This document shows, in pieces, positions 15,594 to 32,000 of a DNA stretch of 32,000 nt. The stretch comes from Candidatus Methanophagaceae archaeon (GTDB taxonomy: Archaea; Halobacteriota; Syntropharchaeia; Alkanophagales; Methanospirareceae). Location of the stretch: NCBI GenBank assembly GCA_003194425.1, contig PQXB01000001.1, forward strand, positions 250,444 through 282,443. Reading direction: 5' to 3'. Both the position numbers and the translations under genes were made by a program. A model generated the notes under the pieces. The model worked only from the letters and a program-made list of their open reading frames with translations, had not been told where the DNA came from and did no database searches. Each line of letters begins with the position of its first letter. Position 1 is the stretch's first letter.

Positions 15594-16167
15594 AAGCAGG
15601 GGAAATAGGGCAACTGCAACCGCGACTCACGGAACCGGAACGGTTGTGGCAGTGGGAACTGTGCTGGCAGGTGCAAGCACGGGTCTTAATCTTGAGGGGA
15701 TTTTTTATAACGGAGGGACGAAAATTGGGTATGTAGTTCATATTTTTATTGCACGAAGAAAAGTTAAAAAGCAGGAAAAAGTTAAAAAGCAGGATAAGAT
15801 AAAAGAGATATTAAAGGAAGCGAAGATGTTAATGACAAACAAATATCATCACGCTCATCTGCATCATTGGTTGGATGGGAGCGCCGAAGAAGGAAGGAAA
15901 GAAGGAGTAAGTGAGGGGCGCTACAAAAATACCGCAAAAATATGAATAAAACAGGGAATAGAGAGATAGAGGATAGTATAGAAGGGGGTATAAGAAGGTG
16001 AAAGGGAAGAGCGCGGAGAAAAGCAGGGAAAAAACGAGTGAAAGGGGAAAAGCAAGTAGAAATAGAGCAGAATACCGAAACCTTTTTATACATACTACCG
16101 AAAAGCATATATACCCCTTCAAAGAAATAGAAGGTATAAAAAAAATTAGGAGGTGAAAACAAAAAAA

Positions 16168-16788
16168 ATGAAAACGAAGATTGGCAAAAAAAGTATAGGA
16201 ATATTGATTGCAGCGATAATAGTTACTTCAGTCTTTGCAGCGATTGCGCCGACAATTGGTCAGGAAGGAGATGATGGGATAGTAGAACCGGAATGGGCAC
16301 CACCAGCACCGTGGGGACCGGGCTTAAATATTACAATAGCGACACCACCAGAAGATTCCTGCGTGCACGATACGATAAACCTTACGTGGCTAAAGAATGG
16401 CACGACTACCCCGGCAGTTTTAAAGGATTATCTGTATGTAGCGCTCGTTGACTGTGGGTCGCCGTATTGTATGCACACAATAGAAGAGAAAGTCTGCCTG
16501 CATGGTTGTACCTACTATGAGGTAGATCTCACAGATAATGATTGGCAGAAACACATAGACCAGTGCGAGGAGTTCTGTATATATGTCTGGAATTCTTCTA
16601 CCAGATTCGGACTACCTGACACCTCATACTTTAGGAACGGGACTACGCTTAGATATGACAAAGTAGAGCCGTGCATAGAAGCGGTCGATCCAATAGATGG
16701 CAGATGGGTTAACTGCACAGCGGATCTTGAGTTGAACGTTTCGGCATGTGACTGGAGTCATAATTCCGCAGTGGGAATAGTAAAGTAA
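16168..16788 (+). CDS. secreted Cys-rich hypothetical protein
   Basis: The track ORF starts at a GTG (16153) that lies inside the Shine-Dalgarno sequence itself. The ATG at 16168 lies 12 nt after the GGTG of TTAGGAGGTGA. Signal/anchor segment KKSIGILIAAIIVTSVFAAIAPTIG. The mature part contains many Cys and several N-X-S/T sequons. No family recognised. Confidence 0.7.
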   Translation: MKTKIGKKSIGILIAAIIVTSVFAAIAPTIGQEGDDGIVEPEWAPPAPWGPGLNITIATPPEDSCVHDTINLTWLKNGTTTPAVLKDYLYVALVDCGSPYCMHTIEEKVCLHGCTYYEVDLTDNDWQKHIDQCEEFCIYVWNSSTRFGLPDTSYFRNGTTLRYDKVEPCIEAVDPIDGRWVNCTADLELNVSACDWSHNSAVGIVK

Positions 16789-16826
16789 AGGAGAACAGAA
16801 AAAAAAGGACCATAAAAAATTTGGAT

Positions 16827-16867
16827 AGAAGAGGAACAAAAACCTCTTCTATTTTTTTATTTTTTTT
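16827..16867 (+). terminator. hairpin plus oligo-T terminator after the Cys-rich protein gene
   Basis: agaagagg-aacaaaaa-cctcttct is a perfect 8-bp stem (16827-16850), followed by tttttttattttttttt (16852-16867). Confidence 0.45.
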
Positions 16868-16877
16868 GAACGGAAAA

Positions 16878-17990
16878 ATGAAATCTGTTAGTGTTATTGC
16901 GATGATAATTTTTGCACTCGCCGTGGCAGTGGAAGTGGCAGCAGCAATTCCGCCCTCTCCAAAATACGAAGTATATCGCGGCGATGTCTTCGTTAACGGA
17001 ACGCTTGCGCCAGACGGGACGAGAGTGTCAGTAAAAGTAGGTGCGCTCGACGAAGTGGAAGACAGCACAGAAAATGGAACATATTGGATAGCAATTAAAT
17101 CCTCGCAAGCGAGCCAAGGAGACATGGTAACGCTTAAAATATACGATGCAGTCGTGGAGACTGCCAAAATTGATAAAAACGACTACATCTCTCAAAATTA
17201 CATAAATTTATACCTTGAGGATTATTTAGTAAACGAATCCGCACAACCGGACGCTCTGCCCGAAACGACAACCGAGAGCAGGATATTAGTAAATTGGGCA
17301 TTTTATTCCGGCTACGACTCAACAGGGGTGAAATGCTACGAGTTGTTAAGGAGATACGAAGATGAGAAAACATTTTCCTCGCTCGTTAAGACAAATAATA
17401 CACGCTATTTTGACATTCTAAACGCTACTGGCGAATATTGCTACAGGCTCGTAACCTACGACTTCGTCGGCAACTCCAAAAATTCTACGCAGGATGTCTG
17501 CACAACCTTCGTCTCCAACAAGACCTTCACACTCAACGGCTTCGTGAAATACGAAAACGGGACAGGAGTCAGCAACGCAAACGTTACCCTTGAAAAATAC
17601 TTCAATCCTGTAAATTCAACCACCACGACCGAGAAAGGCTACTACGAACTCGCAGCCTCTTGGAAGAGGTACAATTTAACCGCGGCGAAAGGAGATGTTT
17701 TGGTCTGGGGGAGGGAAGGGAAAGGAGGAGCAAAGTACATTTCCTTCCTTAACAGTTCCGCCGTCGTAAATTTAGACGCAAACAAGACCGTGAATCTTAC
17801 TTTGGTAGTGAAAGGGGATTTGGACGGGGACTGCGCGGTGGGAATTGCGGATGTTCGTGTGGTCGCGAGAATGCTAGTTGGAAGCGTCTCGGAAGACTTG
17901 AAAGCGGACTTTAACGGGAACGGTTGCGTGGATTTAGGGGACGCTGCGAAGTTGCTCGGGTTTGTTAAAGGTGGAGTGAGTAAGTTATAA
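16878..17990 (+). CDS. secreted protein with FN3-like and carboxypeptidase-regulatory-like modules and a C-terminal dockerin-like domain
   Basis: The track ORF starts at 16821. The ATG at 16878 begins a signal peptide, MKSVSVIAMIIFALAVAVEVAAA. The C-terminus has two EF-hand-like dockerin segments, GDLDGDCAVGIADVRVVARML and DFNGNGCVDLGDAAKLLGFV (about 17815-17960). Confidence 0.8.
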   Translation: MKSVSVIAMIIFALAVAVEVAAAIPPSPKYEVYRGDVFVNGTLAPDGTRVSVKVGALDEVEDSTENGTYWIAIKSSQASQGDMVTLKIYDAVVETAKIDKNDYISQNYINLYLEDYLVNESAQPDALPETTTESRILVNWAFYSGYDSTGVKCYELLRRYEDEKTFSSLVKTNNTRYFDILNATGEYCYRLVTYDFVGNSKNSTQDVCTTFVSNKTFTLNGFVKYENGTGVSNANVTLEKYFNPVNSTTTTEKGYYELAASWKRYNLTAAKGDVLVWGREGKGGAKYISFLNSSAVVNLDANKTVNLTLVVKGDLDGDCAVGIADVRVVARMLVGSVSEDLKADFNGNGCVDLGDAAKLLGFVKGGVSKL

Positions 17991-18062: not shown

Positions 18063-18500
18063 ATGGGGAAGAAGAAAAGAGCAAAAGTAAGAATAGGAAT
18101 GCTAGTAGTAGCGGTAAGTGTAGTAGCGTTGTTTTCGGCATCGGCATTCGCACAGCCGCCGGGTCTGCCATTTGGAAACGAGACGACAAACGAAACGGGA
18201 TTGCCACCCATTCCAATTCCGCCGACACAGCCTCCTGAAAATGCGCCTCTTCCGTCGCCTTCGGTAACCGCAACACTGCCTGTCTCTGCACCTGCCACTC
18301 CAACTGCACCACCAACTGCACCACCAACTGCACCTCCAACTGCACCAACTACTCCTACCGTGACGGTAACAGCAGTAACACCAAAACCGCAAGCCGAGAC
18401 GCCAGGTTTTAGCGTTTCGGCGGTTGTTACAGCAGTGCTTGGTCTTGGGTTTGTGTTAGTGGGGCTTAAAAGGACGGGGCAAAGAAAGAAGAGCAAATAA
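18063..18500 (+). CDS. small Pro/Thr-rich surface protein with PGF-CTERM archaeosortase sorting signal
   Basis: Signal peptide RIGMLVVAVSVVALFSASAFA. Pro/Thr-rich linker including PTAP x4, encoded by a 12-bp x4 repeat at 18301-18348. C-terminal TPGFSVSAVVTAVLGLGFVLVGLKRTGQRKK, that is a PGF motif, a TM helix and a basic tail. Confidence 0.8.
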   Translation: MGKKKRAKVRIGMLVVAVSVVALFSASAFAQPPGLPFGNETTNETGLPPIPIPPTQPPENAPLPSPSVTATLPVSAPATPTAPPTAPPTAPPTAPTTPTVTVTAVTPKPQAETPGFSVSAVVTAVLGLGFVLVGLKRTGQRKKSK

Positions 18501-20948
18501 ATGGAAAGGATAATTGGAATAGCAATTTTCGTTTTGCTAGTCGCAGGGGTAGGGGCAGCGAGCGCCGACACCTTCGTGCCAGGCGAGGTGATTGTTGGTT
18601 TCGAGCGGGCAACAGGAGTGCAGGCACAGGAATCGCTGATAAAAAGCTGCGGCGGGGCAGTAACAGACAGAGACACCACGCTTGGCTGGGTGTTAGCGAA
18701 GGTAGAAGAGGGGAAAGAGCAGGAATTTATCGCGAACATTTCGGGAGAGCGGGGCGTGAGGTACGCGGAGCGGAACGGAGTTGTAAGAGCGCTTTACGTT
18801 CCTAACGACCCAAAATGGAGTGAGCAGTGGGGACTGGAGAGAATAAACGCGGACGACGCTTGGAAGGTCGAGAAAGGCAGCACGAGCGTTAAAATCGCGA
18901 TCGTGGACACAGGCGTAGACTACAACCACGAAGACTTAAACGCGAACTACTTTAGCGGGGGCTACGACTGGGTTAACAATGACAGCGACCCTTGGGACGA
19001 CTCGGTAGGGCAGTACCACGGACACGGCACACACTGCGCTGGGATTGCAGCCGCGGAGATGGATAATTCTGCAGGAATCGCCGGCGTCGCGCAAGTCGGA
19101 ATTCTGGCTGAAAAAGTTATTAACGAGACTGGCTACGGCTCTTACTCGGACTTGGCTAGCGGAATTCAGCACGCCGCAGCGCAGGGTGCAAAAATAATAA
19201 GCCTGAGCGTTGGCGGGAGTTCGGCTTCGCCCACTCTAAAAAATGCCTGCAAGTACGCCTGGGACAAGGGCTGCCTCCTCGTTGCCGCTGCCGGGAACGA
19301 CGACACAACCGAAGTCTGCTACCCTGCACGCTACGAGACTGTAGTCGCGGTCGGCGCGATAAATGAGGTGGGCGTTAAGTCGATTTACAGCAACTACGGA
19401 CCTGATGTTGAGCTGGCAGCACCCGGCGACGACATTCTCTCGACCCTTCCGAACAACACTTACACCCGCAAATTTGGGACTTCGGCGGCTACTCCTTTTG
19501 TCGCCGGTGTTGCAGGGTTAGTTTGGTCGCGGAGTCCCGAGCTGACGAACGAGGAGGTGCGGGAGCGGTTGCACAGGGTCAGCACAGACTACGACTGGGT
19601 TGAGTACGGTTTGGTGGACGCAGCGAGGGCGCTCTCCACAGCCGCGGGGTCAGACTACGCACGGGCGGGCTCGCTGATTGTAACGATTGGAAAAAACGCA
19701 ACGACGCAGGTTAGCGTCGGGAACGCGAAAAATATTACCGGCGTCTCGTTGAACCTTGAGTACGACGCCTCTAAACTCTCGGTTCAAAAAATAGCCGCGA
19801 ACGAGACGACAAACCAATCTTCAAACGGCTCCTGCTACTGCTACAGCAACACAACCTCCGCAGGAGTCGCAAGAATCGTTTTCCTCACCGCAGAACCGCT
19901 CAACTCAACAACAAGCGAGACCCCGATTCTTGACATTGAATTCAAGGCAGTAGGGGGCGCAGACACTCGCTCTTACTTGAATTTGAGTAGCGTCGAGTTT
20001 GCGAACGCGGGCTACCTGCCTTTCGCACCTTCAAAAGTCTTCAACGGCACGGTAGAGGTGAAGTCCTCCCTTTACGGCGTGAACCTAACCGTAGAAGGAA
20101 CGAAGTGTGCGTGGAATTTCACTGAGCCGAACGAGAACGCAACTTTCCTCCTTGCACTGCGCAACACGGGCGTCGTTGCTGACAACTACACGCTTGAGGT
20201 TGAGAGCCCAGAGGGGGCGGAGGTCGCTGCGTTGAACTCAACAGAAATAACAAACCTCGCACCAGAGGCGACCGCAAAAGTCCTGCTTCAAGTAACCTCC
20301 GCAGACGAGGGTACTTACACTGTAAATGTAACCGCGACCTCAGAATGCGACCTGGACATTTACGACCAAGTCACGACGAGGACGCTCGTAGCCACGAGAT
20401 ATAATTTGCAAACAAGCCTGCTCGAAGGCTGGAACCTGTTCGGAGTGCCGCTAAATGTGAGTGTCGAGGTCGGTGGCAGTGGCTGGAGTTTGCCCGCGGT
20501 CTTGGCTTCAATCGAGGGAAAATACGACTACCTCTCCTACTACAACACGAGCACTGGGAGAACAGATTTCTACGACCCGCTCAACACCGAATTCTCGACG
20601 CTAAAGACCCTGAAACCCGGAGCAGGCTACCTCGTCCACCTAACTGAAGAGGCACCTGTCTCGCTCGAGTTTGAGGGTGTGAAGTTAAGGGGGTTGGAAG
20701 TGCCGTTGGAGAGAGGTTGGAATATGTTCTCGGTTCCGTACGGCGTAGCGGATAAAACGCTACCCGCGGTTCTGAAATCAATCGAGGGAAACTACGACTA
20801 CATTTACTACTACAACGCGACCACAGGGGAAATGGACTACTACGACCCGCTTAATCCCGAACTTTCAACGCTGAAAATTTTAGAACCCGGAGCTGGGTAT
20901 TTAATACACATAATTAACAAAGTAACATATTTTCCGGCAATTAAATAA
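18501..20948 (+). CDS. subtilisin-like serine protease (peptidase S8) with I9-like propeptide, cohesin-like module, CARDB/NEW3-like module and two C-terminal GWN...PGAGY repeats
   Basis: - Catalytic triad motifs: IAIVDTGVD (Asp codon 18906-18908), HGHGTHCAG (His 19032-19034), GTSAATPFVAG (Ser 19482-19484).
- Cohesin-like segment: LIVTIGKNATTQVSVGNAKNITGVSLNLEYDASKLSVQKI...PILDIEFKAVGG...FNGTVEV (about 19680-20065).
- Two roughly 85-aa repeats EGWNLFGVP...PGAGYLVHL and RGWNMFSVP...PGAGYLIHI (about 20410-20930).
- The ATG directly follows the TAA of the upstream gene. Confidence 0.9.
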   Translation: MERIIGIAIFVLLVAGVGAASADTFVPGEVIVGFERATGVQAQESLIKSCGGAVTDRDTTLGWVLAKVEEGKEQEFIANISGERGVRYAERNGVVRALYVPNDPKWSEQWGLERINADDAWKVEKGSTSVKIAIVDTGVDYNHEDLNANYFSGGYDWVNNDSDPWDDSVGQYHGHGTHCAGIAAAEMDNSAGIAGVAQVGILAEKVINETGYGSYSDLASGIQHAAAQGAKIISLSVGGSSASPTLKNACKYAWDKGCLLVAAAGNDDTTEVCYPARYETVVAVGAINEVGVKSIYSNYGPDVELAAPGDDILSTLPNNTYTRKFGTSAATPFVAGVAGLVWSRSPELTNEEVRERLHRVSTDYDWVEYGLVDAARALSTAAGSDYARAGSLIVTIGKNATTQVSVGNAKNITGVSLNLEYDASKLSVQKIAANETTNQSSNGSCYCYSNTTSAGVARIVFLTAEPLNSTTSETPILDIEFKAVGGADTRSYLNLSSVEFANAGYLPFAPSKVFNGTVEVKSSLYGVNLTVEGTKCAWNFTEPNENATFLLALRNTGVVADNYTLEVESPEGAEVAALNSTEITNLAPEATAKVLLQVTSADEGTYTVNVTATSECDLDIYDQVTTRTLVATRYNLQTSLLEGWNLFGVPLNVSVEVGGSGWSLPAVLASIEGKYDYLSYYNTSTGRTDFYDPLNTEFSTLKTLKPGAGYLVHLTEEAPVSLEFEGVKLRGLEVPLERGWNMFSVPYGVADKTLPAVLKSIEGNYDYIYYYNATTGEMDYYDPLNPELSTLKILEPGAGYLIHIINKVTYFPAIK

Positions 20949-20964: not shown

Positions 20965-23900
20965 ATGGGAGAAAAGGGAAGGAAGAGAGAGGGGGGAAAG
21001 TGGAAGAAGAGACGACTGATTGGAGTAGCGGCGGTGGGGGCGATATTAGTGACGACTTTTGCTTCGCAGGCTGTGTGCGCATCGGTGCCGTTGTTTAATG
21101 AGGCAATACTTAGAGGGTATGTTTTCGATACGCAGGGAAATCCAATACAAAGGGCATTAATTGAATGGCGAGATAGCGAGACTATGGAACTATTTGAACT
21201 TACAACCACAACCTACACAGGATATTATTCCACGCCACACTTGTTCAACGACGCGGGCGCCGTAAGATCCTTGATAACCGCCGCAAAGACAGACTTCTCT
21301 ACTAACTCAACAATAATAACGACCGAGCCTGCTTTTCCGCCTACATTTTACGAACTGAATTTTACATTGCTTGAAATAGCGGAAACAGGCAGCATAAACA
21401 TAAACGAGATAATGTACAATCCAAGCACGGAGCAAGGAAGCGACACCGTGCTGGAGTGGATTGAACTGCGCAACGACGACACAGCAGCAGTGAACCTAAA
21501 CGGCTGGACGATTGCGACACCCGAAGTAGGAAAAATAACAGAAGAAATAATTCTGCAGCCGGGAGGTTACGCAGTGCTTGCGAGGAACAAGGACGCGTTT
21601 GAGGCCTACTACGGTGCCGGTGGCGAGTTGTCGTGCTCGGTGGTAGAAGTGGAAATGAGACTTGGAAATGCAGAGGACACGGTAGTCTTGAAAGACGGTG
21701 CAGGAACAGAAATCGACCGGGTGTCCTACAAGGACGACTGGGGTGCGGACGGTAACGGGAAAACACTGGAACTAATTGGAGCAGGCGGGGGCTGGCGAGA
21801 GAGCGTAGCAGACGACGGAACGCCTTGTGCAGAGAACAGCGTAGTTTTTATGAAGCCCGACCTGACGGTTACCGTTTCAGACGGCTCGCTTAACTGCGGC
21901 TTCCTCTTCGGGAACGAGAGCAACGAGGTCTGCGTAACTGTCGAGAACATCGGCACTGACAGGACAGACGCGTTCAACCTCTCCTTCGATATGAACGGCT
22001 TCAGCACAGAAGAGCGAGTGGCTGGCGGGTTAGTGGCTGGCGGGAATGCAACAACGGTCTGCGTCGCCGACCCGACGCTGCGAAGTGCGGGCGATTCGGT
22101 GACCGTTCGCGTCGTCGCAGACTGCAACGGCGAAATTACTGAGTCGAACGAGACGAACAACGCAGCCAGCCTCACAACAACAGTCGTGAACAACGGCTAC
22201 AAAGGAAAACGATACACCGGCGGCGAGGACATCGCCAGTTGGAAGAAATTTGAACTCAACGGCGACCTGCTCTACTCTGTCGGCGACAGTTTCTATCTGA
22301 GTGCTTACACCTACAAGCACTGGACGGAGTACGCTGCAAACTGGACTGTGAGCGACCTGCAAGTTCCTGATACTGAAACTGCGACCGTTAGAGAGGCGAG
22401 GTTGTACGTGCCTTACACCTGGGACAAGGCAGGTGTGATGCCCGACGAGGTGAGCCTGACCTTCAACGGCGTGACTCAAACGTTGGACGCACACTACACG
22501 GATGAGAAAATGCACGCTACCAGCTACCCCTACGGAATGCTGGTATACAATGTAACCGAAGATTTGGATACAAGCGCAAGCGGCAACACCGCAGTACTCA
22601 CTAACTCTCACCTCGGTGGCGGAAATGTGTCAATTCGCGGAATGCTTCTCACGGTGATTTACGCAGACGAGAGCGAGCCACTGCGTGAGATATTTGTTAA
22701 CGAGGAGTTTGACCTGCTCTACGGCGGGGCGTCAAAATGCACGACGCCCGAGGAGGCGACCGCTTACGCTCCTTTCGGAACTGCTGACACTGAAGATGTT
22801 CTTTCTGCCACGCTGGTAACAGTCGCTCCTGGTGCAGGACCGAGTGAGGGGGAGCTGACCTTTAACGGGCAGAAATGGACGGACGTGTGGAGTTTTGCAG
22901 GCGCTACGCAAATAGGAATAGACAAGCGAGAAGTAACTTCGTTCTTGCAGGCGGCCGAGAACGAAGCGGGGTTCCAAAGCAGCGCCGACTACTTTGAACC
23001 GAGCAACGCAATTCTCGTTGTAGAACACATTGAGCGGGTAAACCTAAACATAAACGAGATAATGTACAATCCAAGCAAGGAGCAAGGAAGCGACACCGTG
23101 CTGGAGTGGCTTGAACTGCGCAACGACGACACAGCAGCAGTGAACCTAAACGGCTGGACGATTGCGACACCCGAAGTAGGAAAAATAACAGAAGAAATAA
23201 TTCTGCAGCCTGGAGGTTACGCAGTGCTTGCGAGGAACAAGGACGCGTTTGAAAATTACTACGGTGCCGGTGGCGAGTTGTCGTGCTCGGTGGTAGAAGT
23301 GGAAATGAGACTTGGAAATGCAGAGGACACGGTAGTCTTGAAAGACGGTGCAGGAACAGAGATCGACCGGGTGTCCTACAAGGACGACTGGGGTGCGGAC
23401 GGTAACGGGAAAACACTGGAATGGAATGCGACAGGCTGGTTTGAGAGCGAAGTAGAGGGCGGAACGCCTTGTGCAGAGAACAGCGTAGTTTTTATGAAGC
23501 CCGACCTGACGGTTACCGTTTCAGACGGCTCGCTTAACTGCGGCTTCCTCTTCGGGAACGAGAGCAACGAGGTCTGCGTAACTGTCGAGAACATCGGCAC
23601 TGACAGGACAGACGCGTTCAACCTCTCCTTCGATATGAACGGCTTCAGCACAGAAGAGCGAGTGGCTGGCGGGTTAGTGGCTGGCGGGAATGCAACAACG
23701 GTCTGCGTCGCCGACCCGACGCTGCGAAGTGCGGGCGATTCGGTGACCGTTCGCGTCGTCGCAGACTGCAACGGCGAAATTACTGAGTCGAACGAGACGA
23801 ACAACGCAGCCAGCCTCACAACAACAGTCGTGAACAACGGCTACAAAGGAAAACGATACACCGGCGGCGAGGACATCGCCAGTTGGAAGAAGTTTGAACT

Positions 23901-26514
23901 CAAAGGCAACTTGCTCTACTCGGTCGGCGACAGTTTTTACCTGAGTTCCTCCACGCAGAAGCACTGGGCGACCTACACTGCCAACTGGACTACAGGAGAC
24001 CTACCAGTTCCCGAGACTGCGACTGTTAGAGAGGCGAGGTTGTACGTGCCTTACACCTGGGACAAGGCAGGTGTGATGCCCGACGAGGTGAGCCTGACCT
24101 TCAACGGCGTTGCTCAAACACTGGATGCACACTACACAGACAGGAAAGGCTACGGCTCCTACGACTACCCTTACGGAGCGCTGGCTTACAATGTAACCTC
24201 GGGTTTTGACCTTGACGTAAGGAACACCGCAGTGCTAACGAACACACACCCCGGCGGTGGAAATGTGTCAATTCGCGGAATGCTTCTCACGGTGATTTAC
24301 GCAGACGAGAGCGAGCCACTGCGGGAGATATTTGTTAACGAGGAGTTTGACCTGCTCTACGGCGGGGCGTCAAAATGCACGACGCCCGAGGAGGCGACCG
24401 CTTACGCTCCTTTCGGAACTGCTAACACTGAAGATGTTTTCTCTGCCACGCTGATAACAGTCGCTCCTGGTGCAGGACCGAGTGAGGGGGAGCTGACCTT
24501 CAACGGGCAGAAATGGACGGACGTGTGGAGTTTTGCAGGCGCTACGCAAATAGGAATAGATAAGCGAGAAGTAACTGCGTTCTTGCAGGCGGCCGAGAAC
24601 GAAGCGGGGTTCCAAAGCAGCGCCGACTACTTTGAACCGAGCAACGCATTCCTCGTTGTAGAACACAAGAGGCCAGACCTTGTCGTCAGAGGGATTAAAA
24701 TAAACCCCAACGGCACTCGCGGCGAAGAGATTGTTAGGGTTTATGTAAATGAGAGCAACAACCTCACTGCAGTCGTGCAGAACAACGGAAATGCCGACGC
24801 AGGAGCGTTTGAGGTCTGCTTCGAGGTGGGTTCAGGCGTTGAGGTCGGCTGCGTAAACGTGGCTGGACTGCCTGCTGGGGCTAACGCAACGGTCAGCACC
24901 TTTTGGACGCCGTGTTGCGAAAACTACTCGGTTGAGCCCGGTTTCCCGGCACGCTCGCTTCCCACAACTGTAAATGTAACTGCGGACTGCACTGAAAAAA
25001 TACCCGAGTCAGACGAGGCGAACAACCTGCTCTCGAAGTTTATTCCCGCTGTTCAGCAGTACGCGGGCTACGATGTTTTAGGCGGGGTCGTTAACAACGG
25101 CTACAAGAGCAAGAACTTCGACTGCAACGCCACTGAAGAGCCGCTGACACTCTTCGAGCACGAGGAGGAGTTGCTCGGCGGCGGTCTCGCGTTAAATGTA
25201 AGCGGTGCGAAAATCAGTTCCTTCGATCCCGGCGAGACCAGCACAAGAACCCACCACATTGAAATTCCTGAAGGTGCAACCGTGAAAACCGCGAGGCTCT
25301 ACGTCTACTGGTACGACAAATGGGGTAACTACAAGCAGTACCCAACTGGGTGCTTGGCGGACCTCAGCGTGAATTTTGGTGGCACCGAGTTCGCACCCGC
25401 AAAGAAATACAACGACCAGAAGGGCTTCGGCTACTACCACAGCCCGAAAGGAACTTACACCTACAACGTGACCTCAAAGGTGCGAGAAGCCGGGTCTGGC
25501 GACTACACCGCAGTCGTCAAGAACACCGACCCCAAGAACAGCACGACCCTACTCGGCGAAATGCTACTCGTCGTCTACGACGACCCAGCGAAGACAAACC
25601 TCACGCAAATTTGGGTGCTTGAGGGCAACGACTACTTAATGTCCGCAGACGAGACGCACAACAGCTACAACTACGGCGTCTCGCCAGAAGAGGCGACTGC
25701 AACCGTGAAATTACCCGGAAACCTCTCGACAGCGGCAGCGAATCTCAGTTCCGTCTGCTCTGCAACGCTAATTTCGGTCGTCGCGCAGGGAATGTCGCCT
25801 GGAGCAAACCTACTCTTCAACGGCGAAGTCGTTAAGACAGACGCTTGGAACACGGAGACCGAAGCCTACCCAAACAGCAAAATTAATTTGGAGTCGTTAG
25901 ATGTGAAGCCCTACCTGACCTTAACCGCTTCAGGCAACAGAGGAAACAGCGTTGGCTTCCAAGACACTGGCACCGACGGTCTGCAGGCGAGCAACGCGAT
26001 TCTTGTGGTGGAATATTCTGAGCAAGAGCCACTGCACCCCGCTGTTTCAATTTCCACCGACAAAACAGACTACACCCCTGGCGAGACAATGCAAATTACA
26101 CTGAACTTGTCAAATCCAACGGGGACTGACCAAACGGTGTGGTTTGAGTGGTACTTTGGAATACCGGCTTACAGCTACTGGCTGCCTTTTGTAGAGCCTT
26201 TGCCTTTAAATTTGCCCGCGGGTTGCGAGTACTCCTTCCCCTTTTCAATTTTGGTAGGCAACTGGGGCGAGACGGGATTTGACGCAGTCTGGCTCGTGAA
26301 CCTGTCAGACCCGGTAACGCACAAAATTATAAGTTCTGACACTGCCGAGTGGAGCTACGCCCCTGTTCCTCCTGCTACTGCTGTTGCTACCGCTGCAGTT
26401 AGCAGCGAGCAAACGCGAAGCGTAGAGAACTTTGATGAGGAAATGTTAGGTTCAGGCAGAGAAATAGAAAAGAAGTTAAAGGCAAAATTAGAAAGTGAAA
26501 CAGAAAAAAGATGA
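20965..26514 (+). CDS. giant secreted protein: CarboxypepD_reg-like + 2x(LTD + CARDB + DUF3344-like) + CARDB + DUF3344-like + shared C-terminal domain
   Basis: 1849-aa ORF with SD TAGGAGA upstream.
- Lamin-tail-domain motif: NINEIMYNPS.EQGSDTVLEW.ELRNDDTAAVNLNGWTI...RVSY (twice).
- CARDB motif: PDLTVT...NEVCVTVENIGTD...ESNETNNAAS (twice), plus a diverged third copy PDLVVRGI...ESDEANN.
- Three DUF3344-like modules, named from memory of the family: VVNNGYKGKRYTGG...REARLYVPYTWDK...LLTVIY.
- C-terminal ISTDKTDYTPGETMQITLNLSNPT...VGNWGETGF...DTAEWSY. Confidence 0.9.
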   Translation: MGEKGRKREGGKWKKRRLIGVAAVGAILVTTFASQAVCASVPLFNEAILRGYVFDTQGNPIQRALIEWRDSETMELFELTTTTYTGYYSTPHLFNDAGAVRSLITAAKTDFSTNSTIITTEPAFPPTFYELNFTLLEIAETGSININEIMYNPSTEQGSDTVLEWIELRNDDTAAVNLNGWTIATPEVGKITEEIILQPGGYAVLARNKDAFEAYYGAGGELSCSVVEVEMRLGNAEDTVVLKDGAGTEIDRVSYKDDWGADGNGKTLELIGAGGGWRESVADDGTPCAENSVVFMKPDLTVTVSDGSLNCGFLFGNESNEVCVTVENIGTDRTDAFNLSFDMNGFSTEERVAGGLVAGGNATTVCVADPTLRSAGDSVTVRVVADCNGEITESNETNNAASLTTTVVNNGYKGKRYTGGEDIASWKKFELNGDLLYSVGDSFYLSAYTYKHWTEYAANWTVSDLQVPDTETATVREARLYVPYTWDKAGVMPDEVSLTFNGVTQTLDAHYTDEKMHATSYPYGMLVYNVTEDLDTSASGNTAVLTNSHLGGGNVSIRGMLLTVIYADESEPLREIFVNEEFDLLYGGASKCTTPEEATAYAPFGTADTEDVLSATLVTVAPGAGPSEGELTFNGQKWTDVWSFAGATQIGIDKREVTSFLQAAENEAGFQSSADYFEPSNAILVVEHIERVNLNINEIMYNPSKEQGSDTVLEWLELRNDDTAAVNLNGWTIATPEVGKITEEIILQPGGYAVLARNKDAFENYYGAGGELSCSVVEVEMRLGNAEDTVVLKDGAGTEIDRVSYKDDWGADGNGKTLEWNATGWFESEVEGGTPCAENSVVFMKPDLTVTVSDGSLNCGFLFGNESNEVCVTVENIGTDRTDAFNLSFDMNGFSTEERVAGGLVAGGNATTVCVADPTLRSAGDSVTVRVVADCNGEITESNETNNAASLTTTVVNNGYKGKRYTGGEDIASWKKFELKGNLLYSVGDSFYLSSSTQKHWATYTANWTTGDLPVPETATVREARLYVPYTWDKAGVMPDEVSLTFNGVAQTLDAHYTDRKGYGSYDYPYGALAYNVTSGFDLDVRNTAVLTNTHPGGGNVSIRGMLLTVIYADESEPLREIFVNEEFDLLYGGASKCTTPEEATAYAPFGTANTEDVFSATLITVAPGAGPSEGELTFNGQKWTDVWSFAGATQIGIDKREVTAFLQAAENEAGFQSSADYFEPSNAFLVVEHKRPDLVVRGIKINPNGTRGEEIVRVYVNESNNLTAVVQNNGNADAGAFEVCFEVGSGVEVGCVNVAGLPAGANATVSTFWTPCCENYSVEPGFPARSLPTTVNVTADCTEKIPESDEANNLLSKFIPAVQQYAGYDVLGGVVNNGYKSKNFDCNATEEPLTLFEHEEELLGGGLALNVSGAKISSFDPGETSTRTHHIEIPEGATVKTARLYVYWYDKWGNYKQYPTGCLADLSVNFGGTEFAPAKKYNDQKGFGYYHSPKGTYTYNVTSKVREAGSGDYTAVVKNTDPKNSTTLLGEMLLVVYDDPAKTNLTQIWVLEGNDYLMSADETHNSYNYGVSPEEATATVKLPGNLSTAAANLSSVCSATLISVVAQGMSPGANLLFNGEVVKTDAWNTETEAYPNSKINLESLDVKPYLTLTASGNRGNSVGFQDTGTDGLQASNAILVVEYSEQEPLHPAVSISTDKTDYTPGETMQITLNLSNPTGTDQTVWFEWYFGIPAYSYWLPFVEPLPLNLPAGCEYSFPFSILVGNWGETGFDAVWLVNLSDPVTHKIISSDTAEWSYAPVPPATAVATAAVSSEQTRSVENFDEEMLGSGREIEKKLKAKLESETEKR
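21393..24668 (+). repeat. intragenic tandem duplication, 2 x about 1.64 kb (copy 1 about 21393-23030, copy 2 about 23043-24668)
   Basis: The offset is 1650 nt at the start (taaacgagat at 21401 and 23051) and 1638 nt at the end (agcgccgact at 22981 and 24619). Long blocks appear identical by eye, for example about 21840-22250 against 23478-23890. Diverged patches with small indels lie between them. Confidence 0.9.
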
Positions 26515-28064
26515 AAAGGAGGATTAAAATTTGCGGTGCGACGCTGCTGTTGGTCTTGGTAGTTTCGGCGTTTGCAGTGCCAAGCGGAGTGGCCGGAGTG
26601 GCAGCCCTTGAGAGACCGACTTACGGCGTTGAACTGACCGTAGACGGCGGCAACAAGACTGCGAACCAGTCCGTGCGGCTTGGTGAGAACGCGACCTACA
26701 ACCTGAGCCTTACGAACGCAGGAAATGCCACAGACCGCTACACGCTGAACTTTTCGAACCCGAACAACGCGACAACCTGCGGGCTGCTGCTCGGTGCGGC
26801 GAGTCTCAAAAAGAACCTAACGACAGCAGTCTTGGTGCCCGGAGAGAGAGCGAATTTAACGCTCGTCGTCGGAAACTCGACCGAAGGAGTGTTCAAAGTG
26901 AACGTAACCGCTACCTCTGTGAACGACCCTGCAAATGCAACCGTTAACACAACGACTACGGTTGGGACAGCACCAACGAGCCCTTCACTCGTCTCCTACA
27001 CCATTTCCAACCGCACAATAACGCCACCCCAAACCACAGAAATAGATGTTAGATTCTCGGAGCAGGTGGAAGCGTGGATAAAAATCGAAGATTCCGAGAG
27101 AAATTTGGTGAACGAGTTGTACCACAGCCCTGCCGTGACCAACCCAAAACCTAAAATCTGGGACGCAACCTTCACAAACGGAACACTCGTTGGAGACGGC
27201 GACTATTTTGTAAATGTTACTGGGACCTGCGCATGCAGCAGCATAGAATGCACCGTAACGAACGACACCGAAATTATCACCGTTACCCTCCCGCCAGACA
27301 CCGACACCACGCCACCCGCGGTAACAGACCCAACTGCAACGCCCGAGACGATTCTTGCCGACGGAGTCCAAACCTCGCTCTTGAGTGTGACTGTCAAAGA
27401 TGAGACCGCGGTTGACACTGTCGTAGTGAACCTCTCGCAAATCGGCGGGTCGCCAGCACAGGTCTTGGAACTCATCAACAGCACGCTCTTTCTCTACGGC
27501 ACGACGACAAACGCGTCGGTGGGAACGCCACCCGGAACCTACAACCTAACAGTCTCTGCAACTGACATTTACGGGAACTCTAACGCGTCGGTGAGCTTTC
27601 GGCTGACCGTTACCGAACCAAGACTCGCTGTTTCAATTTCCACCGACAAAACAGACTACGCCCCTGGCGAGACAATGCAAATCCAACTGAACTTGTCAAA
27701 TCCCACGCCCGCCGACCAAATGCTGCTGTTTGCGTGGTACTTTGCGATCCCTGACTACAGCTACCAGACCGCCGTCGTAGCACCTACGCTTGTTATTTTA
27801 CCAGCGGGCTGCGACTTTTCCTTCCTCCTTCCAATGCCTGTGGGCGACTGGGGTGCGACAGATTTCAACGCTACTTGGTCTGTTGAACTGCTCAACCCGC
27901 TGACCTACAGCGTCGTAGACGACGACACTGCCGAGTGGCGTTACACGGCTGTGCGTGCGGCGGCAGGAGCGGAAATTGCAGGAGAAGAGGCGGCAGCAGC
28001 AGAGAAAATCGGTGCGGAAATAAAGAGAGAGCTAAACAAAGAGGGAGGGGTGCTACCTTTTTAA
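26511..28064 (+). CDS. secreted, heavily sequon-decorated Ig/CARDB-like repeat protein with the shared C-terminal domain
   Basis: The start overlaps the upstream stop (ATGA at 26511-26514). Signal peptide ICGATLLLVLVVSAFAVPSGVAG. CARDB/NEW3-like segment YGVELTV...NATYNLSLTNAGNATDRYTLNF. C-terminal domain ISTDKTDYAPGETMQIQLNLSNPT...VGDWGATDF...DTAEWRY. I count 24 N-X-S/T sequons (X not P) in 517 aa. Confidence 0.85.
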   Translation: MKRRIKICGATLLLVLVVSAFAVPSGVAGVAALERPTYGVELTVDGGNKTANQSVRLGENATYNLSLTNAGNATDRYTLNFSNPNNATTCGLLLGAASLKKNLTTAVLVPGERANLTLVVGNSTEGVFKVNVTATSVNDPANATVNTTTTVGTAPTSPSLVSYTISNRTITPPQTTEIDVRFSEQVEAWIKIEDSERNLVNELYHSPAVTNPKPKIWDATFTNGTLVGDGDYFVNVTGTCACSSIECTVTNDTEIITVTLPPDTDTTPPAVTDPTATPETILADGVQTSLLSVTVKDETAVDTVVVNLSQIGGSPAQVLELINSTLFLYGTTTNASVGTPPGTYNLTVSATDIYGNSNASVSFRLTVTEPRLAVSISTDKTDYAPGETMQIQLNLSNPTPADQMLLFAWYFAIPDYSYQTAVVAPTLVILPAGCDFSFLLPMPVGDWGATDFNATWSVELLNPLTYSVVDDDTAEWRYTAVRAAAGAEIAGEEAAAAEKIGAEIKRELNKEGGVLPF

Positions 28065-28087
28065 CCTCCTCTTTTTTCTTTATTTTT

Positions 28088-29479
28088 ATGACACGGAAAA
28101 GAAGCGGAAGTGCAGTTCTTCTCGTCACAGCACTCCTTATTTTCGCTTTTATTTCTCTAACTTTAATTCTAACTCTAACTCCCAGCGTTAGCGCTGCGGA
28201 AAGTCTAACTCCCAGCGTTAGCGCTGCGGAAAGCGCTGCGGAAAGCGAGACCGAAAATAAATTTTGCATCACGAAAATCAGCCCCAGGAATATACAGCCC
28301 GCAGACATTTCCACAGTGAGCGTAACGATAAAAAATATCGGCTCGCATTCCGCATTTCACGTCGCGACCGAGGTTGAGACGGCTAAGATGCTTGCGGGCG
28401 AGACGGGCGAAACGGGTGAGACAACGCCTGTAAAGGTCGTAGGAAGGGCGAAGAAGAGCGTAGGGACGACTTCTCTGAACTCGCTTGGTTGCGACCGAGA
28501 AGCAACAGTCAAGTACGACTTTTATGTCGAGAAGGACGCAGAAGCGAGCACCTACAACATTCCGCTGAAAGTTCTCTGGCGGGAGAAGCCCGAGGAGGTG
28601 GGGAGAGAGGGGTGGAGAGGAAGAGAAGGAGAAGAGAACGAGGTGCGAAGCGAGACATTGTATTTTGGGGTCAGAGTGCTTGGGCAGTCGAGAGCGGCGG
28701 AAATTGATGTTGTCAATGTTACAACCGCTCCTGCTGGTGCAGGAATTAAGCCTGGCGCGGAGGCGACCCTAAAAATCAAACTCAAAAATATCGGCGGTTT
28801 GACGGTTAGCAGGCTTAAGGTAAGGCTGACTGCAGAAGAGCCGTTCACACCGCTTGATTCCGACTTAGAGCAGTACCTAACAGACCTAAAGCCAAACGAG
28901 ACGAGGACAGCGTATTTTAATCTCTCGGTGGACAGAGAAGCCGCGAGTTCGTGCTACGAACTACCGCTCGTCTTGGAGTACGAGGACGAGTTCGGCAGTC
29001 ACGAAAAGAACACCTCGGTCGGCGTTTCCGTGAAAGGCAGCCCGAGAGTTCTTATTCAGGAAATTATTCTCGAGCCCAGCAAATTGAGTAGTGGCACCGA
29101 AGGGCTGCTTATGATTCGGCTGATAAACACAGGCACGGAGAGTGCAGAGGACACGAAAATAAGAATCGCAGGAGCAGAAGGGATTTTAACCGAAGGGCAC
29201 CAGTTCATCGGCGAAATCGCACCCGACGAATCGGAAACCGCAACCTTCGGCGTCTCGGTTGCTGAAGAAGAAGTTGAGACAGGAAAACACGGTCTGACGA
29301 TAAAAATCGCCTACGAGGACGAGTTCGGAACGAGCTGCCCTGCAAACTCCAAAATCTACGAAATAACCGTCTTTGAGTCCGAGCCGTTCTTGCCGACGAA
29401 ATATGTTTACGCTTTGGCGGGCGTTGCAGCGGCGGCGGTGGTAGGTTACCTTTTACTAGTAGTGAGGCTCAAAAAATGA
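28088..29479 (+). CDS. COG1361-like CARDB-repeat surface protein with C-terminal transmembrane anchor
   Basis: The track ORF (27935) overlaps the previous gene. The ATG at 28088 starts MTRKRSGSAVLLVTALLIFAFISLTLIL (signal/anchor). Repeated modules of the type V.V.N.G...A..v...l...p.....e.......l.p.es....f.v. follow, for example ISTVSVTIKNIGSHSAFHV, ATLKIKLKNIGGLTVSRLKV and GLLMIRLINTGTESAEDTKI. The C-terminal TM is YVYALAGVAAAAVVGYLLLVVRLKK. Confidence 0.8.
   Translation: MTRKRSGSAVLLVTALLIFAFISLTLILTLTPSVSAAESLTPSVSAAESAAESETENKFCITKISPRNIQPADISTVSVTIKNIGSHSAFHVATEVETAKMLAGETGETGETTPVKVVGRAKKSVGTTSLNSLGCDREATVKYDFYVEKDAEASTYNIPLKVLWREKPEEVGREGWRGREGEENEVRSETLYFGVRVLGQSRAAEIDVVNVTTAPAGAGIKPGAEATLKIKLKNIGGLTVSRLKVRLTAEEPFTPLDSDLEQYLTDLKPNETRTAYFNLSVDREAASSCYELPLVLEYEDEFGSHEKNTSVGVSVKGSPRVLIQEIILEPSKLSSGTEGLLMIRLINTGTESAEDTKIRIAGAEGILTEGHQFIGEIAPDESETATFGVSVAEEEVETGKHGLTIKIAYEDEFGTSCPANSKIYEITVFESEPFLPTKYVYALAGVAAAAVVGYLLLVVRLKK
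28175..28246 (+). repeat. 30-bp perfect tandem repeat (2 copies plus a 12-bp partial) encoding LTPSVSAAES x2 just after the signal anchor
   Basis: ctaactcccagcgttagcgctgcggaaagt (28175-28204) and ctaactcccagcgttagcgctgcggaaagc (28205-28234), then gctgcggaaagc (28235-28246). Confidence 0.85.
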
Positions 29480-30333
29480 GGAGAACGCAAAAAAAAGGAA
29501 CGGGGAGACAGGTTTTTTTGTTGGTTTTGTTTCTGTGCTATTTTCTGCTCTTGACTCCTTACATTGTGCACACGAACCTGAACGAAGTTGGAGGAGGGGT
29601 TGTCGAGGACTTGAAGACCGTCCCAGTTCCGTCTCTTCCTGCAGACATTCAGGACCTTGTCTTTGACTTTGGCGGGGACGAAAGCGACTGCACGGTTCTT
29701 TTGCTGGAAAACAGCGTCTCGGGCGAGAGAACAGCCGTTGTAACCGTCCAAGACTGCGAAATCCAAAAGGGCGCGGTGGTGAAGGTTACAGACAAAATAA
29801 TCGAGTGGTTCGTGGACTGGCACGCCTACCAGTCCTGCAGCGGCTTTGACTTTGGCGAGAAGTTTGGAGTCCTTGTTGTCGGCGAGGTCGCAGAGGTTAG
29901 TGCAGCAGAGTCGGGCGTTGAAAAGGTTCTTTCCTCCCGCCCCCTCGGCAGTCCCCTCTTCACGCTTTCAAAGGCGTCTTTTCTCTTTGCTCCGCTGCTG
30001 CTCGTAGTTTGCCTTAGTCTCGGCACCAGAAACCGCTTTTACCTCTGGAACTTCGCTGCGGTCTTGGCTCTCTACTCTTTTGAAGTCTTTCTGCTCAACA
30101 CCGCAGGGAGCGTGCTGCACGAGGTTGCGCTAGCGGGAGCAAGAGCTGGGGTAGGGGCAGAGGGAGGAGGAGTGGGTGCAGCAGAGGGTTGGAAATATTT
30201 TGGCTACTTGTTTGTGCTGTTAGTCCCCTTCACCGTTCTTTTCGCACGCTACGAGGAGAGCGAAGAGGGGCAGAGGAGACTAAAAAAGTTTTACGCGGGG
30301 CTGCTTGAGTTAGTTGATCGTTTGTTTCAGTGA
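29476..30333 (+). CDS. hypothetical membrane protein
   Basis: 285-aa ORF whose ATG overlaps the upstream TGA (ATGA at 29476-29479). N-terminal TM VFLLVLFLCYFLLLTPYIV, plus three or more C-terminal hydrophobic segments (FLFAPLLLVVCLSL, LWNFAAVLALYSFEVFLL, FGYLFVLLVPFTVLF). No family recognised. Confidence 0.6.
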   Translation: MRRTQKKGTGRQVFLLVLFLCYFLLLTPYIVHTNLNEVGGGVVEDLKTVPVPSLPADIQDLVFDFGGDESDCTVLLLENSVSGERTAVVTVQDCEIQKGAVVKVTDKIIEWFVDWHAYQSCSGFDFGEKFGVLVVGEVAEVSAAESGVEKVLSSRPLGSPLFTLSKASFLFAPLLLVVCLSLGTRNRFYLWNFAAVLALYSFEVFLLNTAGSVLHEVALAGARAGVGAEGGGVGAAEGWKYFGYLFVLLVPFTVLFARYEESEEGQRRLKKFYAGLLELVDRLFQ

Positions 30334-30550
30334 AACTACTTAAAGACGTAAAAGAAACTTTTAATGAAGGAGAAAAAGCAGAGAAAGAAAAATGTCAGGC
30401 TCGTCTGTTTCAAGTTGGATGAGAGCGTCTGGGGGGAACGCCGTGGGAAAAATAGAAATAAGAGAGGAAAACCGAAGCGGAGAGGAAAGACGCTTTACAA
30501 GTAAAAACCCTCTAAAGTCAAAAAAAAATTAGGAGGTGAAAAAAGAAAAA

Positions 30551-32000
30551 ATGAAAACCAAAAGACTACTAAGCCTTTTAATAGTTTTTACAGTGGTGCT
30601 GAGTGTAAGCGTGAGTGCAGGAACGGTCTCGGCAGCGACGCCGAACGACGGGCCAGGTTCGAGCACGAGCAGCGGTGCGTTTTCTGGAGCAGAGGTGTTG
30701 GGTTTGCCGAGGAGTTTCACGCTCGAGGACAGCTTTGGCTACACTTGGGATTTGGACATCGTTTTTGGATGCGTGCTGTACGGCACAAAGACCTCGAGCA
30801 TTGGGACCTACCCAGCGTACGGGTACGTATTCGGGAACGAGATGGTTCTGTGGGCTGACAACCCCGGTTCTCCCTACTCGGACAGCTTTGCCTACACCGG
30901 AATGTGGAACTACAAAACAATGAAATTCGACGGAAAATGGGTCGGCTACCCAAAAGGGTCAGGCAATGTCTCAATGTGGTTTGCTAAGAGTGCGGTAGGC
31001 GAAGGAGAAGAAAAGACCTGGACGAGCGAGAATGTAGAAGAAGGACCTGACGCGGCGGCAAGTGCAGGCACAGAGACAGCGGTTGCACAACAAGCGGTTG
31101 CACAACAAAACCTCGATGCTGCGCCGAGCACTGAAGGTAGCGCTAGTGCTAGTGCGACATTCTTGATTGACGGAGAGAACGCGGAAGAAGAGATTAGCGG
31201 TCTGTTTAGTCGCGGTGCGATTTGCCTCGAAGACAGCTTTAGCTACACCTGGGATTTGGACATCCTCTACGGCTGCATCTTGTACGGCACAAAGACCTCG
31301 GGTATTGGAACTCATCCCGCGTACGGCTTCGTATTCGGCGACGAAATGTTCCTCTGGGCTGACAATCCTGGTGGGGAATATTCAGACAGCTTCGTCTACA
31401 CCGGGAAGTGGAACGCCGCGGTAACGCTCTTCAACGGAACCTGGATTAACTATCCGATGGGGTCTTCAGGCACGGTCGAAGTGTGGCCCTGCGGTGGTGG
31501 ACCAACTGAGACAGAGTACTACGCCGTAATCGCGGGCGAGGGTTACGGTTGTAGTTACGCCGACAGCGACGCCTACGATATGTACGGACTTCTTACGAGC
31601 GAGTTCAACAACAACTGGAAGAAGGAGAACGTCAGGCTGTTAGTGAGCACCGCGGACGGGACGAAACACGACTGCACACGGACAAAGATTCGGAACGGGA
31701 TTTCGTGGATGGCGAGCGAAGCGGACGAGGACGATGTTAGCCTCTTCTTCTACGCGGGGCACGGCGGTTACCAGACGGATGTGACACCACTCGACGAAAG
31801 CGACGGCAACGACGAATACATTTGCCCCGAGGGCGGGAACATTCTTGACGACGAACTCAACAACTGGTTGTCTGCGGTGCCTGGGTACAAGCTGGTCGCA
31901 CTCGACTCCTGCTTCAGCGGCGGGTTCATTAAAGCCGACGGAGCAGAGGTTAGGAGCGTGCCGGGACTGCCGAGAATTGACCGAACCGACGGTTTCAGAG
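30551..32000 (+). CDS. secreted caspase-fold (clan CD, metacaspase/orthocaspase-like) peptidase with duplicated N-terminal domain of unknown function; 3' end beyond window
   Basis: Not in the ORF track, presumably because it has no stop in the window.
- The ATG at 30551 lies 12 nt after the GGTG of TTAGGAGGTGA.
- Signal peptide: MKTKRLLSLLIVFTVVLSVSVSAGTVSA.
- Two roughly 90-aa repeats: LEDSF.YTWDLDI..GC.LYGTKTS.IGT.PAYG.VFG.EM.LWADNPG..YSDSF.YTG.WN (about 30720-30990 and 31230-31480).
- Caspase-like domain: catalytic His in SLFFYAGHGG (His codon 31760-31762), the metacaspase-style DESDGNDEYICPEGG, and catalytic Cys in LVALDSCFSGGF (Cys codon 31910-31912). Confidence 0.8.
   Translation, partial: MKTKRLLSLLIVFTVVLSVSVSAGTVSAATPNDGPGSSTSSGAFSGAEVLGLPRSFTLEDSFGYTWDLDIVFGCVLYGTKTSSIGTYPAYGYVFGNEMVLWADNPGSPYSDSFAYTGMWNYKTMKFDGKWVGYPKGSGNVSMWFAKSAVGEGEEKTWTSENVEEGPDAAASAGTETAVAQQAVAQQNLDAAPSTEGSASASATFLIDGENAEEEISGLFSRGAICLEDSFSYTWDLDILYGCILYGTKTSGIGTHPAYGFVFGDEMFLWADNPGGEYSDSFVYTGKWNAAVTLFNGTWINYPMGSSGTVEVWPCGGGPTETEYYAVIAGEGYGCSYADSDAYDMYGLLTSEFNNNWKKENVRLLVSTADGTKHDCTRTKIRNGISWMASEADEDDVSLFFYAGHGGYQTDVTPLDESDGNDEYICPEGGNILDDELNNWLSAVPGYKLVALDSCFSGGFIKADGAEVRSVPGLPRIDRTDGFR

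Follow-up and report, generated by a model that had tools for sequence, protein, structure and literature searches.

A probable mosaic of surface-protein genes in an ANME-1 archaeon, with a lineage-wide C-terminal domain and a conserved membrane-protein gene pair

ANME-1 (anaerobic methanotrophic archaea, group 1; Methanophagales) are uncultured methane-consuming archaea of marine sediments that are physically partnered with sulfate-reducing bacteria. We analyzed a 32,000-nt stretch of ANME-1 DNA (the window), in which nine consecutive plus-strand open reading frames (ORFs), here called g1 to g9, run from position 16153 to the window end and encode exported proteins, among them two proteases and a giant adhesin-like protein. 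Our analysis indicates that this region is probably a mosaic, strain-variable island of surface genes and not one dedicated machine. The new and conserved pieces are the family of the C-terminal domain (CTD) that ends the g5 and g6 products, and the gene pair g7-g8; the block of nine genes is in itself no new machine. Neither the CTD nor the g7-g8 pair is described in the literature that we searched.

The evidence for a mosaic comes from comparison with other strains and relatives. The order g2–g9 recurs in the metagenome locus L012 and the order g5–g9 in L015, with proteins 95–99% identical, and in both loci a C1 peptidase is found two genes farther on, past g9. Because identity of 95–99% means that gene order was simply inherited, this synteny is uninformative on function. 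Even among such close strains the composition changes: in L012 an 838-aa protein stands in place of g1, which is absent there, and in L014 g6 is missing its tail and unrelated genes come after it. Among relatives at ~40–60% identity, g7 and g8 are the only ones of the nine genes that remain linked; of 10 distinct contexts, 9 have them side by side, at identities as low as 41% and 34%, the lone exception being L039, where an aspartokinase follows g7. Since only g7-g8 stay linked in distant relatives, co-conservation holds for a two-gene core and not for a nine-gene system. An earlier note on this DNA had correctly recognized a cluster of surface proteins in which a cohesin-bearing S8 protease lies two genes from a dockerin protein, together with beta-sandwich giants and a second protease; it had also proposed that the cluster is a single system that should be conserved as a block in related genomes, and of this only g7-g8 survived the comparison. 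A variable collection of unrelated surface proteins, the outcome that the note had set against its own proposal, is largely what we observed.

The layout of the island agrees with the earlier description in most respects. All nine products carry an N-terminal hydrophobic segment, with a second, C-terminal one in g3 and g7. The junctions quoted in the note are all correct, namely the TAA-ATG abutment of g3 and g4 at 18498–18503 and the ATGA overlaps of g5/g6 at 26511 and of g7/g8 at 29476; the intergenic gaps are 16 nt between g4 and g5 and 23 nt between g6 and g7. The six genes g3–g8 are indeed tightly packed, but an oligo-T tract (T6CTTTAT5, plus strand, 28072–28087), a candidate archaeal terminator, lies between g6 and g7, as another does after g1 (16852–16867). 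Archaeal transcription terminates at oligo-T tracts, and since the tracts fit this known mode of termination, the sequence suggests that the six genes make up two transcription units, g3–g6 and g7-g8. A mobile element or provirus was considered as the nature of the island and rejected, no integrase or phage genes being seen among the larger ORFs of the window.

The most interesting lead, although unproven, is that the CTD may be a surface-display tag. In the window the domain ends the products of g5 (CTD at 26020–26511, a beta-sandwich with a charged, atypical tail) and g6 (CTD at 27606–28061, with the canonical tail ...EKIGAEIKRELNKEGGVLPF), both on the plus strand. A hidden Markov model (HMM) built from these two C-termini also matched the C-terminus of a 1103-aa protein encoded elsewhere in the window (1313–4624, CTD at 4190–4621) and the C-termini of C25 and C1 peptidases in the genome CR_Bin_179, and a refined HMM found the domain on the C1 peptidases of L012 and L015 as well. 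A word-indexed homology search with the g5 CTD returned 3 proteins only, and an exhaustive profile search was needed: among 1.84 billion representative proteins it gave 511 CTD clusters at E ≤ 1e-3 and 287 at E ≤ 1e-10. The domain, which had been taken as private to the 1849-aa and 517-aa proteins (g5 and g6), is thus carried by hundreds of others and is lineage-wide. For metagenomes the scan used a 6-sequence alignment and returned mostly short contigs; nothing was found in the viral contigs scanned.

The position and the sequence of the CTD are conserved. In 148 of 152 proteins analyzed at most 30 residues follow the domain, mostly 0–4, and all but two of the 152 carry a single copy, the two remaining proteins having two. 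The N-terminal parts to which it is attached are extracellular modules unrelated to one another; in 85 proteins scanned they include NosD/beta-helix (13), PKD (8), FG-GAP, cohesin, DUF3344/CARDB, PQQ propellers, DUF2341 and S8. Alignment defines a core of ~105 aa, a beta-sandwich with the signature VSISTDKxxYxPGDTM..NPT..F.WY.G.P...W...LPAG.D...P..VG.WG..F.A.W.V.L.D..T..I...D.A.W.Y.P., followed by a variable linker and then by a conserved amphipathic peptide, P-x-E-I-A-K-E-I-x-K-E-I-E-x-V-E-L-P-S, the core of which is present in 86 of 118 members. In none of the 118 do the final 45 residues contain a hydrophobic stretch of more than 6 residues. The confident AlphaFold2 model of the g6 CTD (predicted local distance difference test, pLDDT, 90.4) has seven strands and a C-terminal helix, and a Foldseek comparison of the CTD model with the PDB gave generic immunoglobulin (Ig), fibronectin type III (FnIII) and MG-like folds among the 50 matches listed, with TM-scores ≤0.51. 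No Pfam or NCBIfam model covers the domain, Pfam giving only a partial A2M_BRD match that is barely at threshold in one member.

We propose the CTD as a tag because it is terminal, normally single-copy and restricted to one lineage, because its cargo includes a protein that needs to be retained at the cell (a substrate-binding protein), and because its terminal peptide is conserved. Other identities were rejected: the core of sheath SH proteins does not fit in strand number; the CTD of the type IX secretion system (T9SS) was dismissed, the g5 and g6 C-termini having no Pfam or NCBIfam match and the host being an archaeon; and PGF-CTERM was discarded, there being neither a model match nor a transmembrane (TM) segment. 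A general linkage of CTD genes to g7-g8 was rejected too, on account of solitary CTD genes and of g7-g8 contexts without a CTD gene; on longer metagenome contigs, CTD genes stand alone among housekeeping genes with no g7 or g8 nearby. For one CTD protein (P0120, 515 aa), encoded on a contig of 302 kb, NCBI gives Ca. Methanoperedens (ANME-2d) as the source, which may mean that the CTD is not strictly confined to ANME-1, that it was transferred, or that the contig is mis-binned.

The second conserved piece is the g7-g8 pair. For g7 (28088–29479) the ATG at 28088, where the alignments of homologues begin, is the most likely start, and not the GTG at 27935. The protein is of the COG1361 type, with a signal peptide, CARDB/NEW3 Ig-like repeats (Pfam CARDB, E = 1.2e-11; NPCBM_assoc, E = 8.5e-10) and a C-terminal TM anchor, the two hydrophobic segments being at residues 10–28 and 440–458; one homologue carries the NCBI name "COG1361 S-layer family protein". 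The members of the g7 family that we found are confined to ANME-1 and related Syntropharchaeia, the next matches having 23–26% identity. The g8 gene (29476–30333) encodes a 285-aa membrane protein with a first TM helix, an extracytoplasmic domain of ~120 aa, three more TM helices forming a C-terminal helical bundle, and an acidic cytoplasmic tail. No family match and no recognizable catalytic motif were found in g8 with Pfam and NCBIfam, including Pfam at E ≤ 1 on 20 members, and the name "ASCH protein", given by JGI to one homologue, was not reproduced in that same Pfam search. An AlphaFold2 model of g8 computed with 20 homologues was too poor for a fold search (pLDDT 50.7). Sequence searches against PDB chains with g7, the g8 family, the CTD profile and a DUF3344 unit gave nothing meaningful. 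The homologues of g8 come from metagenome-assembled genomes of Methanophagales, and the named cluster members of g6, g7 and the CTD belong to ANME-1, Methanophagales, Ca. Methanospirare or Ca. Methanoxibalbensis. Together with the archaeal rRNA operon in the window, these assignments identify the host as an ANME-1 archaeon.

The neighbors of g7-g8 fall into three groups. The flanks of L002, L004, L017 and L038 recurrently hold genes for DUF362, GT4, class I methyltransferase, B12-binding radical SAM, radical SAM/SPASM and UbiA or PMT proteins, a set that resembles a conserved gene cluster for modifying glycans or lipids. In L006, L017 and L040 the pair has mannosylglycerate synthase, a hydrolase and GH38 beside it. 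In the third group, seen in four contexts, the neighbors are secreted proteases whose clan changes from one context to the next: this strain has C14 and C1, CR_Bin_179 has C25 and C1, L038 has C25, and Ca. Methanoxibalbensis has S8. Because of its order-wide conservation and its glycan- and lipid-modification neighbors, the g7-g8 pair is probably a core component of the envelope, for example an S-layer-type or stalk protein with its membrane partner.

The remaining genes of the island differ widely from one another. Downstream of g1, g2 (16878–17990) encodes a secreted protein in which a CarboxypepD_reg-like domain is joined by a putative dockerin at the C-terminus. The dockerin scores 19.1 bits against PF00404 (Dockerin_1), under the cut-off of 22.9, but two 12-residue loops of the form D-x-D/N-x-D/N...D, DLDGDCAVGIAD and DFNGNGCVDLGD, can be seen by eye, each with a helix after it. 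The product of g3 (18063–18500) has a signal peptide, a Pro/Thr-rich stalk and the C-terminus ...ETPGFSVSAVVTAVLGLGFVLVGLKRTGQRKKSK, where PGF, a TM segment and the basic tail KRTGQRKKSK fit PGF-CTERM by eye, with 11–14.5 bits against TIGR04126, below the cut-off of 24.5. Scans of the larger ORFs of the window, and thus of the window only, showed no archaeosortase A. Two genes downstream of the dockerin protein, g4 (18501–20948) encodes a secreted subtilase with a fervidolysin-type prodomain, an S8 domain (PF00082, 186 bits) with the triad motifs IAIVDTG, HGTHC (residue 175) and GTSAATP (residue 326), a cohesin at residues 397–520 (PF00963, 31.4 bits for a cut-off of 24.1), a CARDB-like domain that shares homology with the g6 N-terminus, and, at the C-terminus (20493–20913), two repeats of ~90 aa, GWN(L/M)F.VP ... 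Y.YYN..TG..D.YDPLN.E.STLK.L.PGAGYL.H, with no Pfam match. In total the window holds 1 cohesin and 1 dockerin, and no multi-cohesin scaffoldin was found in it.

The giant of the island, g5 (20965–26514), encodes an adhesin-like protein of 1849 aa arranged as (LTD-CARDB-DUF3344) ×2, CARDB-DUF3344 and CTD, with Pfam matches to LTD (two), CARDB (three) and DUF3344 (three, 587 bits). It contains a tandem duplication of 1.64 kb (~21395–23030 and 23045–24680) with 95–98% nucleotide identity between the copies. In near-identical strains, whose proteins are 97% identical, the orthologues measure 1450 aa (L012) and 910 aa (L014), differences that reflect either repeat-number polymorphism or assembly collapse. 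The g6 gene (26511–28064) encodes a secreted Ig-like domain protein of 517 aa, ending in the CTD, with weak Ig-like Pfam matches only and 24 N-glycosylation sequons. The domain content given in the earlier note was therefore right for most calls (S8 with cohesin, LTD/CARDB/DUF3344, CARDB/NEW3 and C14), while the g2 dockerin and the g3 PGF-CTERM, visible by eye, stay below the model cut-offs.

At the two ends of the island lie g1 and g9. The longest ORF of g1 begins at the GTG at 16153 and its start was set at 16168; the gene (16168–16788) encodes a secreted Cys-rich protein of 206 aa with 10 Cys, for which Pfam and NCBIfam searches gave no family match. A homologue with 60% identity, in the metagenome locus L028 (950–1885), has a CTD fused at its C-terminus, whereas the g1 of the window has none. 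The g9 gene (30551–32000) runs past the window end; its product is secreted and has two N-terminal repeats of ~165 aa followed by a Peptidase_C14 domain (PF00656, 37.6 bits against a cut-off of 21.4) with both motifs of the His/Cys dyad, YAGHG (residue 401) and DSCFSG (residue 452). Its orthologues measure 574–581 aa at full length, and the window copy is incomplete at the 3′ side. A 19-nt leader, AAAAATTAGGAGGTGAAAA, is found at 16141–16159 on the plus strand, 9 nt upstream of the g1 ATG, and an identical copy at 30524–30542, 9 nt upstream of the g9 ATG (2 matches versus 0 expected); it may be a ribosome-binding or regulatory leader common to the two genes. Both products open with MKTK.

Taken as a mosaic, the island would consist of at least four separable modules that differ in how their proteins are held at the surface. 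One would comprise the g2 dockerin protein, the g3 stalk with its PGF-CTERM-like end and the g4 S8 protease with its one cohesin, on which g2 may dock through a dockerin-cohesin contact. Another would be formed by g5 and g6, Ig-fold/DUF3344 adhesin-like glycoproteins ending in the ANME-1-wide CTD; this domain, a sandwich with an amphipathic EIAKEI..VELPS helix and no membrane segment, could be a tag that binds non-covalently and so keeps otherwise unrelated exoproteins on display at the ANME-1 envelope or sheath. A further module would be g7-g8, the only pair conserved throughout the order, an anchored Ig-repeat protein with its putative four-helix membrane partner, and g1 (Cys-rich) and g9 (a caspase-fold protease) would be standalone secreted proteins. 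Selection acting on adhesion and proteolysis at the surface, for instance where the cells touch partner bacteria, might then explain why the island varies.

Several observations speak against a mosaic, or against parts of it. The 4-nt overlaps of g5/g6 and g7/g8 and the g3/g4 abutment show co-expression within sub-blocks, and from this some functional coupling is likely. The proteases that recur beside g7-g8, here treated as neighborhood noise, could reflect a real link between proteases and the pair. All the compared contexts are metagenome assemblies, and the break in L014, which lies within the g6 tail, may come from a chimeric assembly. Finally, the proposed anchoring role of the CTD is deduced solely from its position, the diversity of its cargo and its fold.

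In the working hypothesis of the earlier note, the products of the nine genes assemble at the surface into one proteolytic or adhesive complex, analogous to a cellulosome but directed at protein substrates or at cell-cell contact, with cohesin and dockerin as its scaffold joints. An S8 protease with a cohesin and a dockerin two genes upstream, genes on one strand that overlap or abut, export of all the products and retention of the whole block in two near-identical strains would fit such a complex. We nevertheless hold it to be improbable: there is no synteny beyond 95–99% identity, distant ANME-1 keeping g7-g8 only, the composition varies among close strains, the single cohesin comes without a multi-cohesin scaffoldin, and oligo-T tracts divide the block. 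Moreover, with ~80 cohesin and 110–150 dockerin domains in ANME-1 metagenomes (PMC5244752), the adjacency of a single pair says little about whether the two bind each other. Two further alternatives concern what the CTD does. According to one, the CTD is a true sorting signal and g7-g8 its receptor or processing machinery, an ANME-1-specific stand-in for the archaeosortase/PGF-CTERM route, so that the window would show the machinery beside some of its substrates, g5 and g6, with the C1 protease just past the window end as another. ANME-1 would then have a display pathway of their own, in which the ~105-aa sandwich with its ..EIAKEIxKEIExVELPS peptide is the tag by which many unrelated exoproteins, among them proteases, adhesins, beta-helix proteins and a substrate-binding protein, are attached to the sheath or envelope, g7-g8 being the receptor or assembly factor; we consider this, too, to have a small chance of being correct. 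CTD proteins do flank g7-g8 in this strain (g5 and g6 upstream, a CTD-bearing C1 peptidase downstream), the pair is followed by CTD-bearing C25 and C1 peptidases in CR_Bin_179, the named members of both families are mainly from ANME-1, the extreme C-terminal peptide of the CTD is conserved, as in sorting signals, and archaeosortase A and S-layer domains are reported to be lacking in ANME-1 (PMC5244752). However, five other g7-g8 contexts have no CTD gene in the sampled flanks of up to 10 kb, CTD genes on longer contigs sit amid housekeeping genes away from g7 and g8, the g8 protein, of which the model is poor, has neither a recognizable catalytic motif nor a family match, Ca. Methanoperedens is the assigned source of one CTD protein, and the two supporting contexts may share one ancestral arrangement. 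In these comparisons we found no evidence that the CTD depends on g7-g8, and such dependence appears to us a long shot.

The other alternative for the CTD is that of a common terminal Ig-like spacer or stability domain, spread by domain shuffling in ANME-1 and with no part in sorting or anchoring, in which case the island would have no organizing principle beyond the fact that its proteins are secreted. The generic folds and low TM-scores returned by Foldseek, the weak Pfam A2M_BRD matches of some members and the similar FnIII-like domains that end many glycoside hydrolases and proteases could be explained in this way. A display tag fits better than a spacer because the domain is strictly terminal, its amphipathic tail is conserved beyond the sandwich, it is fused to a substrate-binding protein, which must stay cell-bound to work with its transporter, and 150 of the 152 proteins carry one copy; the spacer is thus unlikely. 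The mosaic, with the CTD as a putative tag, remains the reading that we favor.

The substrate-binding protein is the 1103-aa secreted protein already mentioned (1313–4624, plus strand), in which a PQQ beta-propeller, DUF4430 and Peripla_BP_2 precede the CTD. A gene for a DtxR-type iron-dependent repressor (1184–696, minus strand) adjoins it, and the protein looks like a metal-uptake receptor displayed through the CTD. Between this protein and the island, the minus strand carries an archaeal rRNA operon (4920–10700), with the small-subunit (SSU) gene at 10700–8895, tRNA-Ala(TGC) at 8019–7946 and the large-subunit (LSU) gene from 7764 to ~4920. The SSU match extends over 1806 nt, against a model length of 1478 nt. 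A match to a group I intron at 8934–8190 (54.5 bits against a cut-off of 50) holds a LAGLIDADG ORF at 8726–8214 (E = 1e-16), and insertions of ~135–150 nt are present in the pieces of the LSU as well. The last ~450 positions of the 23S rRNA model (2534–2987) are essentially unmatched, only ~50 nt being left at 4969–4920; at this end of the 23S gene lies a 215-aa ORF on the minus strand (5033–4386) with weak helix-turn-helix matches, which overlaps the 3′ end of the 1313–4624 gene. The missing end may be due to truncation of the rRNA gene, to an intron whose 3′ exon is absent, or to an assembly junction.

The two conserved pieces have uses of their own. A profile of the CTD would allow an "ANME-1 surfaceome" to be listed from sequence alone, and g7-g8, an order-wide two-gene membrane module beside glycan- and lipid-modification genes, would give a second handle on how the ANME-1 envelope is built; both are concrete targets for metaproteomics and for heterologous binding tests.

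With regard to known systems, published work has already shown that dockerin, cohesin and CARDB domains are over-represented in ANME-1, and has put forward both the idea of an adhesive surface construct and the cellulosome analogy for ANME dockerin and cohesin proteins (Timmers et al., 2017, PMC5244752; Chadwick et al., 2022, PMC9012536). The proteins described there, which are non-cellulosomal, resemble those of the window in that they come from the ANME-1 lineage, are secreted and carry single cohesin or dockerin modules on unrelated domains, in that their composition varies between close relatives, and in that roles in surface attachment and cell contact have been proposed for them; these studies differ from ours in giving genome-wide domain lists, without this gene block, the g7-g8 pair or the CTD. 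From cellulosome-type systems the window differs in having one cohesin, one dockerin and no scaffoldin.

As an extreme C-terminal module borne by many unrelated exported proteins of one lineage, the CTD is comparable to the PGF-CTERM/archaeosortase A system, to the T9SS CTD of Bacteroidota, which is likewise a small beta-sandwich, and to SLH domains. Unlike PGF-CTERM, it has no hydrophobic membrane segment, and it differs from sorting domains in matching no NCBIfam sorting-domain model and in its additional amphipathic helical tail. To our knowledge, ANME-1, as archaea, have no outer membrane and no T9SS. The likeness of g7 to the COG1361 "S-layer family" of Euryarchaeota lies in the CARDB/NEW3 repeats, the signal peptide and the C-terminal TM anchor; g7 differs in being paired with the lineage-specific four-helix g8, and its S-layer role is putative.

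Published surveys report no canonical S-layer domains in ANME-1, and sheath proteins in some lineages only. The archaeal sheath SH proteins of Methanospirillum, Methanothrix and ANME-1 have a core of two six-stranded antiparallel sheets (PMC11576556); like the proteins considered here they are secreted envelope proteins of ANME-1, often with Ig-like "cap" domains and in many copies per genome, but the CTD model has seven strands and a helix in place of two sheets of six. That the sheath is what the CTD binds is speculation. In fibrillar adhesins, which have repeated stalk domains, DUF3344 has been listed as a candidate for adhesion whose function is ambiguous (Monzon and Bateman, 2022, PMC9210967), and g5 resembles these adhesins in its long secreted CARDB/LTD/DUF3344 array, its recent internal duplication and its strain-dependent repeat number; it differs from them in being archaeal and in ending with the ANME-1 CTD, and not with an LPXTG motif or a membrane anchor.

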